A DNA stretch of 53,254 nt from a virus. Taxonomy: Duplodnaviria; Caudoviricetes. Within the stretch, counting starts at the first letter, position 1; every line of letters starts with the position of its first letter. The DNA lies in the IMG/VR virus record IMGVR_UViG_3300010052_000163, positions 1 to 53,254 of that record, one strand, 5' to 3'. The notes under the pieces are model-generated. The model ran no database searches. It had not been told where the DNA came from and worked only from the letters and a program-made list of their open reading frames with translations. Positions 25,859 to 32,215 of this stretch are shown one piece after another. Both the position numbers and the translations under genes were made by a program.

Positions 25859-26971
25859 TTATGCGTACTGCGCCATGCGCGCGGCATCGCGAACGCTGGC
25901 ATTGTCGGTTGCGAGGATGCGCGGGGTGCCGATGGGCTGGACCGTGCGGTTGTCGTTGGCTTCGGTCTTGCCCTCGGTGAGGCCGTCGAAGCGGGCGTCG
26001 ATATAGTCGTCAGACTTGTCGGCCACGGCAGTGTCGCCCTTGATCAGGCGGACCGTCTCGCGGCGAACGTCGGCGACGCTCTTGCCAGCGAAATCGGGCG
26101 CCTTGTCGCCGAGCAGCGCCTTGGCCTTGGTGACGGCATCGGCCTTCGCGTCGGCGAGCGCATCGATCTTGGTCTGATCGACAACCTTGGTCTTGAGATC
26201 GTCGATCTCGGTGTCCTTGGCCGCGAGCGCCTTGTCGTGGGCGGTCTGGGCATCGGCCAGCGCTTTGTCGGCAGCGGCCTTATCCGCCTGCAGCTTCACA
26301 ATTGCCGCCTCCGCTTCATCGGAGACGTTCGGGACACGAAGCCCGTCGATCGTCAGAGTTTTCATGGGTATGTCTCCAGTGGAGGTGAGGCGGTCGAAAA
26401 TGTCCGCAGGAAGCGCGTCGCAGGCGGCAAAACCGTCCTTGATCGCACATTCGGAGCCGGCGCGGCCCCGATCCACGAGGGCGACGTGATTGCCCGCGAT
26501 GGAAGTCTGGCGCGCCTGGCATTTGGTGCCGTCGGGCGCGGTGAAGTCACCGAATTGCAGGTCGGTCGAATAGCCGTTCGACAGCTCGCGCTTGCCAGCA
26601 TCGACCTTTGCGATGGCGTCGGCGTCGGTGAGCAAGAGATCGAAGGCGAGATAGTCGCCATCGCGCATCGCTCCCATGACGGTGCCGCGCGCGAGATCTT
26701 TCCAGTTGGTGGAGTTTACCGGCGCACTCGGATGGTCGTCGGTGATCGGTTTGCCGATGAAGCTGCGAGCGCTGGCGTTGTCGAAAACGGTTGTGTCGTC
26801 GCGCAGCACCTTGACGATGGGCGTGTCGCGCAGGCCGTGCTCATTCTTGGGATCGACCTCGGAGCCGGCATAATCGTAGACGCCGGTGCGCGCAGCCTTT
26901 GCCCGCACGGCGAGGTATCCGTCCTTGGTCCGGCGGGGCGCGTCGAGCGTGAGGGCGTCGGTAAAGAACAT
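25859..26971 (-). CDS. DUF2213 prohead protease/scaffold-like protein
   Basis: TKDGYL, ARTGVYDY, PITDDHP, ELSNGY, NHVALVDRGRAG; coiled C-terminus. Confidence 0.9.
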   Translation of the reverse strand: MFFTDALTLDAPRRTKDGYLAVRAKAARTGVYDYAGSEVDPKNEHGLRDTPIVKVLRDDTTVFDNASARSFIGKPITDDHPSAPVNSTNWKDLARGTVMGAMRDGDYLAFDLLLTDADAIAKVDAGKRELSNGYSTDLQFGDFTAPDGTKCQARQTSIAGNHVALVDRGRAGSECAIKDGFAACDALPADIFDRLTSTGDIPMKTLTIDGLRVPNVSDEAEAAIVKLQADKAAADKALADAQTAHDKALAAKDTEIDDLKTKVVDQTKIDALADAKADAVTKAKALLGDKAPDFAGKSVADVRRETVRLIKGDTAVADKSDDYIDARFDGLTEGKTEANDNRTVQPIGTPRILATDNASVRDAARMAQYA

Positions 26972-27022: not shown

Positions 27023-27316
27023 TTAATCGGTGGGCTTCGGGTAAAATCCGATAGCGCAAAGGTCGCCGTGGAACATTTGCACCTCAGCAAAGGTGAACGG
27101 CGGGCGCAGATGCACAATGTCCTCGAACAATTCCCGCTCGTCGTCGTCGGATTCCTCTTCCAGAACGACAGCGAAAGCCCAAAGCTCGCCGCGCTTGACC
27201 GGCTCGCTGCCAAAGTCGCCTCTCGAGCGATAGCCGCTGGTCCGTTGGGCGCTTTCATCCCAAAATTCGTCTTTGAAGACGCGGTTGGGATGGTCATAGA
27301 CAATGAGCCGCGCCAT
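27023..27316 (-). CDS. Hypothetical accessory protein
   Basis: Coupled to upstream ORF; acidic. Confidence 0.6.
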   Translation of the reverse strand: MARLIVYDHPNRVFKDEFWDESAQRTSGYRSRGDFGSEPVKRGELWAFAVVLEEESDDDERELFEDIVHLRPPFTFAEVQMFHGDLCAIGFYPKPTD

Positions 27317-27579
27317 CACCCGCCCTCGCTCAATGCGGCGTCGATCATGGCTTGCCAATCCTGCGTCGGGTTGTTGTCCATCAAGCTCATGTCGGACACT
27401 GCCGCCACCATCCCCTCGCTCGGTTCGCGCAGAGCTTCGAGGATGGAGCGCGCGTCAGGAAGGCAAAGCATCCACGCTGGATAGTCGCATGGCTCGCCGA
27501 TTGGGTTGCCAGCTTGAACCATTTCGTCGGCGCGCGGGCCAGCAATTATGCGGGCAGCGCGTTCGAGGGGGCTGGTCAT
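27316..27579 (-). CDS. Hypothetical accessory protein
   Basis: LERAAR...ALREPSEGM...WQAMIDAAL, a pattern common in small phage ORFs. Confidence 0.7.
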   Translation of the reverse strand: MTSPLERAARIIAGPRADEMVQAGNPIGEPCDYPAWMLCLPDARSILEALREPSEGMVAAVSDMSLMDNNPTQDWQAMIDAALSEGG

Positions 27580-27863
27580 GCTGCCGTGTCCGGTCGATAG
27601 GTCACTCCGTTGACGACGACGAAATCTGGCTGATAACCAAGCGGCTTGCGGGTGATAACGGTGCCGCGCGAAAAATGCTTCTTACGCACATCGATCGGTT
27701 CAATCTCAAGCCACCGGGCGTCGCCATCGCGGCAGTTGACGAGGGCGAGATTTTCCGGGTCACGGATGCGCATCACGCCGCGCGCATATCCCGCAATTCG
27801 TTGGCAGGTGTCACCAAATTCTTTGATGCTGGCGCTCAAATTCGCCATAGACGTTTCAGCCAT
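27576..27863 (-). CDS. Hypothetical accessory protein
   Basis: AGGAGG RBS within structured leader. Confidence 0.6.
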   Translation of the reverse strand: MAETSMANLSASIKEFGDTCQRIAGYARGVMRIRDPENLALVNCRDGDARWLEIEPIDVRKKHFSRGTVITRKPLGYQPDFVVVNGVTYRPDTAA

Positions 27864-27955: not shown

Positions 27956-28813
27956 TTATTCGTCAAACTCAAACACCAGCACCGACCGCGACCGGCATCC
28001 GCAATACGGTGGCTGCCCCGGTCTGTCTCCACGCTCGGGTGGCGCATTAACCGTCCGCCCATCGACCGACTTGCCGACATTCGCAGCCACATCCGAATAA
28101 TAGACCCCATCGCGGGCGACATGCTGGGCGCGCGGGTGAAGCTTGCCGGAGTGTATCCATGCCCAGACTTCTATCCCGGCCTCGCGCCGGCGTTCATCGG
28201 CCAGGCTGTTCGACAGCTTCGACAATTGGTCGGCGGCGATCCGGCGCGCACGATCGCGCCCCATGCCCACCGCATCCGAAATCTCTTTCGCCACCTCACG
28301 CGCGGGCTTGCGCTGGGTCAGGCCCGAAAACACGGCATCGGATATGCGTTTCTTGATCTGTGCGGACACGTCGGCAACGAGGTCGACGTTCCAGCGCAGA
28401 TAGGCGTCGAGCGTGTCGCGCACGTCGTCGGGGCCGAGCATGGTTTGCAGGTCAACGCCGGTCGCGGATAGGATGGCGCCGCGCCATTTGGATCGCACGG
28501 ACGATTCGACCTTGAGCGTCCAATCCCTGAGCGAAGGCATCAACGCAAAAAACAACCGCTGAAACGCCGCCTCTGCCCCGTCGATCTGCGCTTGGATGTC
28601 GGCGGGGGCGTCAGTGGTGAGGGATGCGAGGGTGCGGGCGTATTCGTCGATGATCGAGGGGGCGGCCTGGGTCCAGACTTGGATTACGCCTCGGTACACA
28701 GAATTGAACAGGTCGGTCGCGAGCATCGCCGGCGCTGAGACTTCGCGCAGGACGATAGCGGATCGGCGGATATTGCGTGCGCGCCTCGACATCGCGGCCA
28801 GGTCGTAGCGCAT
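27956..28813 (-). CDS. Minor head protein (MuF/SPP1 gp7-like)
   Basis: RARRIAADQ, WIHSG...PRAQH..RDG, PGQPPYCGCR. Confidence 0.88.
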   Translation of the reverse strand: MRYDLAAMSRRARNIRRSAIVLREVSAPAMLATDLFNSVYRGVIQVWTQAAPSIIDEYARTLASLTTDAPADIQAQIDGAEAAFQRLFFALMPSLRDWTLKVESSVRSKWRGAILSATGVDLQTMLGPDDVRDTLDAYLRWNVDLVADVSAQIKKRISDAVFSGLTQRKPAREVAKEISDAVGMGRDRARRIAADQLSKLSNSLADERRREAGIEVWAWIHSGKLHPRAQHVARDGVYYSDVAANVGKSVDGRTVNAPPERGDRPGQPPYCGCRSRSVLVFEFDE

Positions 28814-29022: not shown

Positions 29023-30939
29023 TCACGCTTCATTGATCTTGCCTTTCCAATCCAAATCCAACGGCTCGAAAATCTCAGGCCCGAACGCCAGTTCGCCAGT
29101 GAACGGACGCACAGCCTCCAAATCCAGACCCGCGGGCGCCGAATAGGTGATCGTCACATGAGGCAGATATTCGGGATAATCATGCGATGCCCCGCCTCGC
29201 ACCATGTCGTCATGGCGCGAGGCGAGGTTCCACGATGCGAATTGCAGCACCACAGCACCCTCGCCAAAGCGTTCCAGCGCGCGCGGCCCGCCTGCCTTGA
29301 CCGTCAATCCGCCATCGTCCTCATTGCCCCACGTCTCGCCCATTTTCATCGGGTCGACGGGCTGTTTCGAATAGAGGACGGTGACGTGCATGTCCGATGG
29401 ATCGAGCGTCGTCGTGAAGCCGTTTGCCTTCGCCCATGCGATCAGCGCCTTTGCCGATGCTGGTTTCAGGTCGCGGCGGACATAGAGCGGGCGCGGGGTG
29501 GCGTCGGTGAACAGGCGGGCGAAGCTGTCATTCGCAGCACGGGCAGCGGGGACACGCGCCCCGCCCCCACGAGATACCGGATCACCTCCCTCCTGTGTCA
29601 ATGCGCTCGGGTCCGTGCCGTCGTCCTCGGATGCGCCGCCGAAGCGTTCTGCTTCGGGGATCTTGTCAAGGGCAGCATCAAGCCCCGGCAACCAACCCGC
29701 CTCGACCAGCCCGTTCTGATAGGCCTCGTTGAACGCGACCTCGGGAATGGCGCCAGACATCGAAACCTTGTCCATCGCCTCGGTCCACGTCTTGAAGCGG
29801 GTTGTTTCCTCGGTCTCGGTCGGAATGTTGAGCGGCGAAAACTGCCACCAGATTTCGGGCGGCCGCGAACCAAGGGCAGACGGGATGAGCGCGGCATCGA
29901 CCTGAACAAGGCAAGGCTTGGTCTCTATTTTCTGCCCGGTCTCGACGGTTTCGCGCCAGTTGTTCGCGTCCCCTTCGCCGGTCGCGTTCAACCCCTTCGC
30001 CGAAGTCCCCCAAAAGCGGGTGAACGGAATGTCGGAGGCGGCACAGAAAGCCTCAGCAAAGCCACGGATGATCTCGGGGATGCCAGTCCACGTCACTTGG
30101 TGGCGTTCGAGCTTTTCGCCGCCCTTGCCGTCTTTGTCGCCCAGGTCGTAGAGCTTGCCGTTGAACACGGACGACCCTTGCACCATCAAACCAAGGCGGC
30201 GCATCAAGCGGGCCTCGCCGTCGGTGGTGCTGACTATGTCGAGCAACCCAGACACGCCGATGTCGACGTTGAGGGAGTCCTTGATCATCGCCGCGAACGT
30301 CGCCAGCGCCTCGTCTAGGTTCTGCGCGGATTCGAGCAGCGACGGGACACGTCCGCGGCCCCAATAGCGATCCTCATGACTTCCGCGCCACATCGACGGC
30401 AGCGGTTCGCCTCGGAAGCATACGACGCGCGACGGGTGGATACGCGTGCGGTTATTTGTGCCGTTGAACGTCCAGAATTTCGGCTGGCCATAGGTCGGGC
30501 TGGTGATTTCCTCATCCCATTCCTCGCCAGTCAGGTGCCAGCGGGTAACGACGTTGATGGCGACAAGGCCCATCTTGCCCGTCACGTTGATCGGCATGGC
30601 AGGATCACCGGCAGCGACAAGGATCAGCGCGCCTCCGCCAAGCCCGCGCAAAATTTCGGCCTGTTTGGTCTTGGCTTGCAGCTGGTGCCGTTCTTCCTCG
30701 GCCTCGATCGCCTCGATTTGCTTTTTCGTCGCCTGCCAGTCGCGCCAAGCCCGGATGCGATCGGTAGCTGGGATATTGATGGCTTTGCGCAGGGACGGGC
30801 TAGCCTCAAACGCTTCCTCGATCTGGACTGGCGTGAGGTGGAGCGACGCATAGGTTCGGCCCATCCGCGCATCGGAGCGCGTCCCTAGGCCGGTGACGAC
30901 ATTTTGCAGCCCGTCAACGAAATTGCGCACGATGCCCAT
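29023..30939 (-). CDS. DUF1073-type portal protein fused to C-terminal Acb1/57B-like 2H phosphodiesterase
   Basis: Portal: RIHPSRVV.F, DIPFTRFWGTSAKGLNATGEGD; C-terminal ~155 aa with MHVTVLYS, GASHDYPEYLPHVTITY and FEPLDLDW. Confidence 0.88.
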   Translation of the reverse strand: MGIVRNFVDGLQNVVTGLGTRSDARMGRTYASLHLTPVQIEEAFEASPSLRKAINIPATDRIRAWRDWQATKKQIEAIEAEEERHQLQAKTKQAEILRGLGGGALILVAAGDPAMPINVTGKMGLVAINVVTRWHLTGEEWDEEITSPTYGQPKFWTFNGTNNRTRIHPSRVVCFRGEPLPSMWRGSHEDRYWGRGRVPSLLESAQNLDEALATFAAMIKDSLNVDIGVSGLLDIVSTTDGEARLMRRLGLMVQGSSVFNGKLYDLGDKDGKGGEKLERHQVTWTGIPEIIRGFAEAFCAASDIPFTRFWGTSAKGLNATGEGDANNWRETVETGQKIETKPCLVQVDAALIPSALGSRPPEIWWQFSPLNIPTETEETTRFKTWTEAMDKVSMSGAIPEVAFNEAYQNGLVEAGWLPGLDAALDKIPEAERFGGASEDDGTDPSALTQEGGDPVSRGGGARVPAARAANDSFARLFTDATPRPLYVRRDLKPASAKALIAWAKANGFTTTLDPSDMHVTVLYSKQPVDPMKMGETWGNEDDGGLTVKAGGPRALERFGEGAVVLQFASWNLASRHDDMVRGGASHDYPEYLPHVTITYSAPAGLDLEAVRPFTGELAFGPEIFEPLDLDWKGKINEA

Positions 30940-30982: not shown

Positions 30983-32215
30983 TCAAAGCGCGTTTTGCAG
31001 CGCCGCCCCATAGTCGTACCCGTCCATCTTGATCAGCGGCGACACCGAATAGCGGATGGCGTCAATCCAGTGGTTATTCGCGTCGACCAGCACCGGCAGA
31101 ATGTCGCCGGTGAGGCGATCTACCTTGTAACTGTAGAGGCGCATTTCCTTGATGACGTTGACGCAGCGCGGATGCACGACGATCTCGCGAAAGGCGCGCA
31201 GGAAGCGGATGCCGTCGTCAACGCTGCCCTGCCATTTTTCGGCGCCGATCGCTTTGGGCAGGCCGGACCGGGTGAGGATGCTGATCGAACCGGGCGAGGC
31301 GCTATCCCACCGGCTGATATGGTCGTCATAGCCGGGAATGTCCTCATTGACCCGCGCGGCAATGGCGTCGAGCTCAATCGCCCGACCGCCGGCTTCGTGG
31401 CTTATGTAGAGCGTGTCGCCGTGAATATAGGTTCGCACCGCCGCGGTCGGATCCTGCGCATAGCCGAAGTCGCCGCCCTGATACGGGCCGTCCCACGTCG
31501 ATGATGGCTCGAACTCCTTTTGCCGCCACTTGCCCGCGAACACTTGGGAATCGCTATTCGTCAGGTACGCGCCCTCCCAAATATGGGCATAGGTAGCGGG
31601 GTCCAATCGCTCCTGTTCACGCCTGCGCAGCGCATCAAGGCCGGGAGGAAAGAATGGGTTGTCGTTCCAATTGATTTCCGTGATCAGGGCGTTCGTCGGA
31701 GGGGTTTTGACGAAACGCTTATCGACGGGGGAGCCGTCAAGCCGCGGGTTCCATATCGCCCATAGCTCCGAATTGGGTTGGCGAAACACCGTGGCCTCAA
31801 GCGCCAGCCAGGACGCCTCTGCGACGTCCTCCGCTTCCTCGACGATGGTCAGGTCGATCTTTGCCAGCGACTTGATGCCGCCGGTATTGTGCCGCAGCCC
31901 GCGGAAAAGAAACTCGGTCCCATTGCGTCCGCGCAGATAGTCGACGCCGACGTCGTAGTGATCCTCAAGCCATGGGTAGGTGGCGATGGCCGATTTCAGT
32001 TCGGCGTGGAACGATTCCTTGATCGACACCTGCAGGTCGCGGGTACACAGCACGCGCAACGGCTCGGCATATCCCCACACGGCCGCCATAAGCGCCGCGC
32101 TGAACGACTTTGCCGACCCTCGTCCGCCCTTTGTCGCGCGATACTGCACGGAACCACGCGGCGGGGCGTAGATCGGGACGAGCTTGGGGGGGAGTATAAT
32201 TCGGGCTTCGGTCAC
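30983..32215 (-). CDS. terL: Terminase large subunit (PBSX family)
   Basis: GGRGSAKS, VEEAE, WNP, GGDFGYAQDP, DANNHWIDAIRY. Confidence 0.95.
   Translation of the reverse strand: MTEARIILPPKLVPIYAPPRGSVQYRATKGGRGSAKSFSAALMAAVWGYAEPLRVLCTRDLQVSIKESFHAELKSAIATYPWLEDHYDVGVDYLRGRNGTEFLFRGLRHNTGGIKSLAKIDLTIVEEAEDVAEASWLALEATVFRQPNSELWAIWNPRLDGSPVDKRFVKTPPTNALITEINWNDNPFFPPGLDALRRREQERLDPATYAHIWEGAYLTNSDSQVFAGKWRQKEFEPSSTWDGPYQGGDFGYAQDPTAAVRTYIHGDTLYISHEAGGRAIELDAIAARVNEDIPGYDDHISRWDSASPGSISILTRSGLPKAIGAEKWQGSVDDGIRFLRAFREIVVHPRCVNVIKEMRLYSYKVDRLTGDILPVLVDANNHWIDAIRYSVSPLIKMDGYDYGAALQNAL

Follow-up and report, generated by a model that had tools for sequence, protein, structure and literature searches.

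We analyzed a stretch of 53,254 nucleotides (hereafter the window) from a virus of the Caudoviricetes (Duplodnaviria), which corresponds to positions 1 to 53,254 of the IMG/VR record IMGVR_UViG_3300010052_000163, and concentrated on one gene of its minus strand, which encodes a phage portal protein whose C-terminal tail is a 2H phosphodiesterase domain of the Acb1 family. The interpretation that we favor, and that we regard as reasonably probable, is that the product is a portal bearing, on a linker of about 30 residues, a catalytically competent Acb1-family enzyme that would hydrolyze cyclic oligonucleotide immune signals from the interior of the head. This interpretation combines an observed domain architecture, a family assignment, the conservation of functional residues and a proposed location, each of which is considered below with the evidence that bears on it.

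The 638-amino-acid protein is encoded by a single stop-free open reading frame (ORF), 29023-30939(-) with the stop codon included; the ORF list, the translation and a six-frame scan all agree with its description in an earlier note, which had been made from the sequence of the window alone. No stop codon separates the two domains, here or in hundreds of homologues. A Pfam search with the full protein placed PF06381 (Phage_portal_3, the former DUF1073) at residues 39-389 (E 2e-81), in agreement with the DUF1073-type portal recognized in that note, and PF23474 (Acb1) at residues 484-633, with 130.3 bits against a cut-off of 27 and with profile positions 2-143 of 144 covered. The tail alone scored 134.6 bits against the same cut-off, and a six-frame scan of the whole record with the Acb1 model returned a single match, at 29041-29490(-), with 134.2 bits and within a 641-codon open frame containing no stops. 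The portal family is also indicated by the phrog_146 'portal protein' profile (E 6.6e-91), whose match covers residues 8-618, and therefore the phage family phrog_146 itself takes in the tail. The portal core matched TIGR01555 (HI1409 family) with 138 bits, under the cut-off of 196, and the gene is placed directly after that of the large terminase subunit.

The predicted structure separates the same two parts. In a full-length AlphaFold2 (AF2) model built on 97 aligned fused homologues, blocks of the predicted local distance difference test (pLDDT) mostly reached 80-97 for residues 31-430, with a dip to about 61-79 over residues 221-290, and the confidently folded portal part extended to approximately residue 440 (position 29620). 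Residues 441-472, which correspond to the acidic and glycine-rich linker described previously, had a pLDDT below 50 and lie between this core and a confident tail, where the blocks from residue 481 on reached about 77-96. The predicted template modelling score (pTM) of the full-length model was 0.60, as expected for two parts that fold independently, and the tail modelled alone gave a pLDDT of 95 and a pTM of 0.89. The two HVT motifs reported for the tail map exactly, by minus-strand arithmetic, to residues 518-520 and 594-596, and the peptide strings quoted with them, RHDDMVRGGASHDYPEYLPHVTITY and FEPLDLDW, are both found in the translation. An internal translation start that would yield the free enzyme was considered and rejected: the linker contains the Shine-Dalgarno-like GGAGGTGATCC at 29579-29589(-), yet no in-frame ATG, GTG or TTG occurs within the next approximately 13 nucleotides. 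This element codes for EGGD and is probably a by-product of the Gly-rich linker.

To place the tail within the 2H superfamily, sequence and structure comparisons with Acb1 were carried out, as the earlier note had suggested, and Acb1 came out ahead of LigT in both. The resemblance to T4 Acb1 (57B) seen in that note reflects true homology: beyond the Pfam score, far over its cut-off, BLASTP aligned the tail with T4 57B at 28% identity over 117 residues (E 9e-10), and phmmer against the sequences of the Protein Data Bank (PDB) retrieved FBB1 Acb1 (7T26/7T27, E 1.9e-9). A tblastn search of 50,697 phage records matched 423 of them, mostly stand-alone T4-like 57B genes with about 28-37% identity. 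When the model of the tail was compared with known structures by Foldseek, the first two ranks were occupied by the Acb1 entries 7T26 and 7T27 (E 4e-9 and 8e-9; template modelling (TM) score by target 0.72 and 0.70), followed by a phosphodiesterase of Burkholderia phage BCSR5 (9Q2Y), while E. coli LigT stood behind Acb1 with an E-value of 5e-6 and a TM score of about 0.5. The LigT-type families of Pfam gave little: PF13563 (2_5_RNA_ligase2) reached 14.5 bits, its cut-off being 27, and PF02834 had no match to the portal-Acb1 protein. By sequence and predicted fold, the tail is best assigned to the Acb1 family rather than to the LigT type, and LigT remains a clear superfamily relative.

The functional residues of Acb1 were then located in the tail by using the T4 numbering of Hobbs 2022 (PMC9117128), the T4 sequence and our alignments, and their conservation was counted over the 97 aligned fused homologues. 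According to the available text of that paper, T4 Acb1 relies on the tetrad H44/T46/H113/T115, on the stacking aromatics Y12, W74, F107 and W147, and on the adenine-contacting E141. In the tetrad, H518 and T520 (H44 and T46) are each kept in 96/97 homologues, as is H594 (H113), and the position of T596 (T115) holds threonine in 82/97 and serine in 15/97, that is, one or the other in all 97. Among the base-contacting residues, Y486 (Y12) is kept in 97/97, the position of Y588 (F107) holds Y, F, W or H in 95/97, W631, the lid tryptophan (W147), is kept in 79/97, and E625 (E141) in 67/97. Thus four of the five base-contacting residues, all except W74, have aligned equivalents. The tetrad and most Acb1-specific residues are kept across the 97 homologues and therefore the domain appears to be under selection as an active enzyme with most of the features specific to Acb1. 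In our estimate the tail is very probably an active enzyme, and its substrate is, with rather less assurance, probably a cyclic oligonucleotide.

A different substrate would be RNA. In this alternative the 2H domain would work as a Usb1-like RNase or in the processing of 2',3'-cyclic phosphate ends, and the head would carry it either as an effector for injection or for the repair of damaged RNA. RNA ends are a common substrate of 2H enzymes, the model of the tail is matched by LigT structures (E 5e-6), the equivalent of T4 W74 is not conserved, and the slot that the tail occupies alternates with PBECR3-like domains in relatives; the available text of Iyer et al. 2017 (PMC5512222) gives an RNase as one of two options, since 2H domains stand in the same architectural position as PBECR RNases. 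The name 'RNA ligase', which PHROGs and many phage records attach to the family, points the same way, but it is the historical name of T4 57B, later shown to be Acb1. Against an RNA substrate stand the scores of the Pfam families (14.5 bits, cut-off 27, for the LigT type versus at least 130 bits for Acb1), the Foldseek ranking of Acb1 structures above LigT, and the retention of Y12, of an aromatic residue at the position of F107, of E141 and of the lid W147. Moreover, a profile search of the provirus found neither the RNA ligase PF09414 nor RtcB, and the same paper, in its available text, states that 2H versions on portal and MuF proteins are never associated with RNA ligases. We therefore consider activity on RNA unlikely.

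The fusion itself is widespread. A search with the tail in a 90%-clustered collection, restricted to lengths of 350-1117 amino acids and to E<=1e-3, returned 475 clusters, and the best 120 of these 475 all carry both Pfam domains. An exhaustive search of representatives at 50% identity yielded 2124 clusters at E<=1e-3, 1385 at E<=1e-10 and 268 at E<=1e-30, numbers which indicate that the match of the fused domain is not due to chance. Among the best 150 of the 2124 representatives, a homologue of the window's portal was found by phmmer upstream of the domain in 104. Fused portals also occur in isolated phages, including the Synechococcus phages Ssp-JY40 and Yong-M3-232 (70.6% tail identity), Rhizobium phages RHEph04/05/06 and their relatives, Pseudomonas phages phiPSA1, MR15 and psageK9, Sinorhizobium phage HMSP1-Susan and Pseudanabaena phage Pam3, in whose deposited portal sequence (8HDS, 621 aa) residues 461-618 match the tail (E 7e-27). 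Databases already carry the combination, both as the precomputed Pfam pair PF06381+PF23474 on the clusters listed and in a UniRef name beginning 'Anti-CBASS pr...' on a protein of Novosphingobium aromaticivorans, CBASS being the cyclic-oligonucleotide-based antiphage signaling system.

These data leave very little room for the view that the tail is a structural or assembly appendage without an enzymatic role, or an artefact of fusion. Nothing specific favors it beyond the fact that the domain is unresolved in the Pam3 map, whereas the catalytic tetrad is kept in 96-97 of the 97 homologues, and the closest portals, 96%, 88% and 81% identical, do without a tail, which is therefore dispensable for portal function. 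An assembly or frameshift artefact is excluded by stop-free homologues, by the isolated phages of Synechococcus, Rhizobium, Pseudomonas, Sinorhizobium and Pseudanabaena, by one PDB sequence, and by the recurrence of the fusion in 74/120 of the nearest portal clusters. We regard a purely structural or artefactual tail as extremely improbable.

The last of these counts comes from a search with the portal alone (residues 1-445), from which the 120 closest clusters were taken: the tail is carried by 74/120 and missing in 46/120, as verified by script. The closest relative among them, P0272 (484 aa, 96% identical), has no tail; it shares the linker up to ...RRAAND and terminates a few residues later. 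In 40/46 of the tail-less portals the protein ends no more than 50 residues past the portal homology, and the remaining 6/46 carry other C-terminal extensions of 95-201 residues, two of them with a sub-threshold similarity to the PBECR3 nuclease. The absence of the tail in the closest portals and the presence of different C-terminal domains in relatives therefore make the portal C-terminus a swappable cargo slot, and on this comparison the tail appears to be an accessory, exchangeable module. A motif of the form P-x-R-R-A-(A/Q)-N-D marks the end of the linker at 29506-29535(-), approximately residues 469-478, and is conserved in P0272, P0274, P0276, P0302 and P0290. Portals share it whether they bear the Acb1 tail, another C-terminal domain or no tail at all, and homology between them stops right after it; the motif may mark a site of recombination or of processing. 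One of these proteins, P0302 (645 aa, Sphingomonas baiyangensis), bears the NCBI name 'anti-CBASS protein Acb1 family protein' yet lacks the Pfam Acb1 domain, and its C-terminus has a weak similarity to PBECR3 (19.7 bits versus a cut-off of 30), so that its name was apparently taken over from fused portals although its own cargo differs.

The same Acb1 subfamily is attached to other proteins as well. In 56 of the best 150 of the 2124 representatives at least 77 residues follow the domain, and 54 of these 56 were scanned with Pfam, the two left out being giant Acb1-NUDIX proteins. The portal families found among the 54 were Phage_portal_3 (27), Portal_Mu (8) and Phage_portal (1), accompanied by the ADP-ribosyltransferase ADPrib_exo_Tox (10), the XkdF-type prohead protease Peptidase_S78_2 (8), PBECR3 (3), ChaB (3), DUF2213 (2) and Zeta_toxin (1). 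P0139 is instructive in this respect, since its Portal_Mu portal has no phmmer relation to the window's portal, yet its Acb1 domain is 59% identical to that of the window, which indicates module shuffling. Taken together, these fusions suggest a subfamily that moves between different capsid-interior proteins, and such movement argues that selection favors the fusion because it brings the enzyme physically into the head, rather than for co-expression alone. The window's MuF protein had no phmmer match in the best 150 of the 2124 representatives, and a fusion of MuF after the Acb1 domain was not found there. The subfamily also opens the giant Acb1-NUDIX proteins P0201 (1744 aa) and P0257 (1490 aa), and P0184 (624 aa) carries a ChaB-Acb1-XkdF protease-ADP-ribosyltransferase string; these three look like self-processing multi-effector head proteins. 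In Roseobacter phage DSS3P8 (gp129, L001:4992-5444) and Ruegeria phage vB_RpoS-V10, an Acb1-like gene is annotated 'prohead protease, HK97 family', and the homologous gene of Rhodobacter phage RcXuper is annotated 'hypothetical protein'. A fusion of Acb1 with a prohead protease in DSS3P8 was discarded, because the match is a stand-alone Acb1-like gene of 150 amino acids and the annotation is likely mistaken.

The location proposed for the enzyme follows from the architecture of portals. The C-terminal parts of portals (crown and barrel) point into the capsid, and together with the flexible linker of approximately 30 residues this would therefore place the tail inside the procapsid, at 12 copies per particle. 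The available text on Pam3 describes its portal as a dodecamer in the virion (PMC9942802). We consider packaging of the tail in the procapsid likely. In the mechanism that we propose, fusion to the portal would put about 12 enzyme copies into each procapsid, and the enzyme would hydrolyze CBASS-type 3'3'-cyclic GMP-AMP (3'3'-cGAMP) or cyclic triadenylate (cA3), and possibly other cyclic oligoadenylate (cOA) signals, through the metal-independent HxT/HxT chemistry shown for T4 and FBB1 Acb1. Being fused to the portal, the enzyme is made with the late head genes and can work in the cytoplasm while its portal is still unassembled. The virion may in addition carry it, and cleavage from the portal would let it leave with the DNA at the next infection; speculatively, the ...RRAAND junction would be the candidate cleavage site and the DUF2213 protein encoded by the phage the candidate protease. 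Release of the tail and its injection into the next host are, in our view, doubtful, although conceivable. Somewhat less probable still is the broader proposal that the C-terminus of DUF1073-type portals is a polymorphic slot (Acb1, PBECR3-like nuclease, ADP-ribosyltransferase or none), with ...RRAAND as attachment and possible release site, from which about 12 Acb1 domains would be freed in the capsid and expelled with the DNA.

The enzyme might instead act solely in the producing cell, late in infection or at prophage induction, the fusion ensuring its co-expression with head assembly and the domain staying on the portal or being degraded without delivery. The portal remains with the capsid at ejection, cleavage is hypothetical and the Pam3 virion model does not show the tail, all of which fits an enzyme confined to the producing cell. 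According to the available text of a preprint (10.1101/2025.07.12.664507), Acb1 is monomeric and needs no partner, and therefore free portal-Acb1 should be active; in addition, the title of another preprint, 'Convergent mutations in phage virion assembly proteins enable evasion of Type I CBASS immunity', ties CBASS to virion assembly proteins. However, an adjacent gene would suffice for co-expression and would make fusion unnecessary. The subfamily has been fused repeatedly to capsid-interior proteins, namely three portal families, a prohead protease and DUF2213, and it is also strung together with ADP-ribosyltransferases and a self-contained XkdF protease, a pattern that points to selection for packaging, and the phage encodes a DUF2213 protein labelled as a head maturation protease. 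Action restricted to the producing cell is a serious but rather unlikely alternative to an enzyme that is carried inside the head.

Several observations weigh against a head-borne Acb1 enzyme directed at cyclic oligonucleotides. The Foldseek fit to Acb1 is moderate, with a TM score of 0.61 by query and a root-mean-square deviation of 6.1 Å, LigT structures also match the model of the tail with a probability of 1.00, and identity to the assayed Acb1 proteins is low (28% for T4 57B and 25-26% for FBB1 in the Foldseek comparison). If portal-fused sequences went into the building of the Pfam model, the high Acb1 score tells little about function. No conserved residue corresponds to T4 W74, positions 548 and 557 being variable and the alignment ambiguous at about 548-558, and therefore the substrate range may differ. 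Since the portal is retained by the capsid, the enzyme would have to be cleaved off to reach the next cell. The Pam3 portal structure 8HDS is absent among the 50 Foldseek matches listed for the model of the tail, despite 37% sequence identity, and therefore the Pam3 domain is either too mobile to be modelled or absent from the mature virion; more generally, the tail domain may be flexible or may be missing from mature virions. A CD-NTase (SMODS) match over the cut-off was found in 1/4 genomes with related prophages, and no experimental study of a portal-fused member was found in the literature searched, most subscription journals lying outside that search.

The genomic surroundings of the gene are those of a head module, in the order small terminase, large terminase, portal-Acb1, MuF-like protein, three small ORFs, DUF2213 protein, Pam3/E217-type cement protein and major capsid protein (Table 1). 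The three small ORFs (95, 87 and 111 aa), at 27023-27863(-) between the MuF and DUF2213 genes, interrupt an otherwise Pam3-like order and had no Pfam or PHROG match. The Pam3 record calls its counterpart of the DUF2213 protein a 'head scaffold'. The DUF2213 protein of the window was not accepted as a proven protease, since the indication is a PHROG label and no PDB sequence match was found; if the portal tail is processed, this protein is a candidate for the task. The IMG/VR record comprises the provirus only, which is estimated to be 100% complete, and the host chromosome lies outside the record; related portals were found in Novosphingobium, Sphingopyxis and Porphyrobacter genomes. The SMODS match (39.3 bits, in a 440-codon open frame at G003:C2:325925-329335, our locus L009) comes from a Novosphingobium genome in which a related portal-Acb1 prophage (L007) is present as well, and it is weak context for CBASS in the host.

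Table 1. Features of the portal-Acb1 gene and of its neighbors in the window.
Feature	Position	Strand	Evidence
Large terminase subunit, immediately upstream	30983..32215	-	Terminase_3 and Terminase_3C
Whole gene, portal with C-terminal Acb1-type 2H phosphodiesterase domain	29023..30939	-	ORF, Pfam, phrog_146
Portal core (Phage_portal_3/DUF1073), residues 39-389	29773..30825	-	Pfam, E 2e-81
Disordered acidic/Gly/Ala linker, residues 441-472, ending ...RAAND just ahead of the enzyme domain	29524..29619	-	pLDDT <50
Predicted Acb1-family 2H phosphodiesterase domain, residues 484-633	29041..29490	-	Pfam, six-frame scan, AF2, Foldseek
First catalytic HxT motif, H518-V519-T520 (T4 Acb1 H44/T46)	29380..29388	-	Alignment
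Second catalytic HxT motif, H594-V595-T596 (T4 Acb1 H113/T115)	29152..29160	-	Alignment
C-terminal 'lid', E625...W631...end (T4 Acb1 E141, W147 and lid residues 145-152)	29026..29067	-	Alignments
MuF-like minor head protein, immediately downstream	27956..28813	-	Phage_Mu_F 31 bits (cut-off 29.6); phrog_324 'head morphogenesis'
DUF2213 head protein	25859..26971	-	DUF2213 190 bits; phrog_530 'head maturation protease' E 1e-81 (label only)

Fusions of this kind have been discussed before. The earlier note knew of no functional account, but one has been proposed by Iyer et al. in 2017 (PMC5512222) and 2022 (PMC9503650), who, in the available text of both papers, describe 2H domains fused to portal and MuF proteins, propose their packaging in the head and their injection, and name as targets the signal nucleotides of SMODS (CBASS), cyclic nucleoside monophosphate (cNMP) and CRISPR systems. 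The gene of the window joins an enzymatic conflict domain and a virion head domain in one polypeptide among packaging and head genes, the arrangement by which the class of 2017 is recognized. It shares with that class the 2H domain on the portal of a terminase-portal phage and the logic of packaging, injection and signal degradation, and the exchange of the slot with PBECR and ADP-ribosyltransferase domains is a theme of both papers. In contrast, the published work, as far as its available text goes, is comparative genomics only, does not use the name Acb1 and leaves open the choice between an RNase and a signal nuclease, whereas Pfam, PDB sequence and predicted fold all assign the domain of the window to the Acb1 family in particular.

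Three further systems offer points of comparison. The biochemistry of Acb1 was established on stand-alone proteins, according to the available text of Hobbs et al. 2022 (PMC9117128); neither 'portal' nor 'fused' occurs in the main text of that paper, in which nine further assayed homologues are not named. Like the T4 and FBB1 enzymes (7T26/7T27), the tail has the 2H fold, the HxT/HxT tetrad, equivalents of Y12, F107 (Tyr here), E141 and W147, and the C-terminal lid, but those enzymes are stand-alone proteins of about 150 amino acids in large lytic phages, whereas here the domain, with 25-28% identity and no conserved equivalent of W74, forms the C-terminus of a portal in a temperate phage of the Sphingomonadales type. 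Portal gp3 of Pam3 (8HDS; Yang et al. 2023, PMC9942802) has the same portal family, an Acb1-like tail and the same order of head genes (TerS, TerL, portal, MuF, DUF2213, cement, major capsid), and differs in that its tail is 36.7% identical and that the domain appears not to be modelled in 8HDS; the C-terminal domain is unmentioned in the available text of the paper. Finally, MuF proteins (SPP1 gp7/Mu gp30) with C-terminal effectors, and T4 Alt with the other internal proteins, are, as cited in the available text of Iyer 2017 (PMC5512222), capsid-borne enzymes attached to or targeted with proteins of the head interior, and the phage of the window has a MuF gene right after the portal. The difference is that the carrier here is the portal, which is not ejected, so that an extra release step would be needed.

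The gene of the window is thus a good, ordinary member of a published and widespread class that is known from prediction, and because the fusion and its role had already been predicted in print (Iyer 2017, 2022) its novelty is low. It introduces no new principle; what it provides is a clean and complete example in a 100%-complete provirus, whose near-identical tail-less relatives are possible natural controls. The wider interest lies in the prediction for the family, in which most of the best 150 tail matches are fusions to head proteins. For the phage of the window, the broader slot proposal, if it holds, would mean protection from the outset of infection against CBASS, and perhaps against signaling of the cA3-based CRISPR or Panoptes type, and its enzyme would be the first demonstrated portal-borne anti-defense enzyme. 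If the published prediction is true, many temperate and lytic phages carry in their capsids an enzyme that destroys cyclic-nucleotide alarm signals ahead of all phage gene expression, which would explain the repeated fusion of the enzyme to head proteins and would change the modelling of CBASS evasion, with protection from time zero rather than only after expression.

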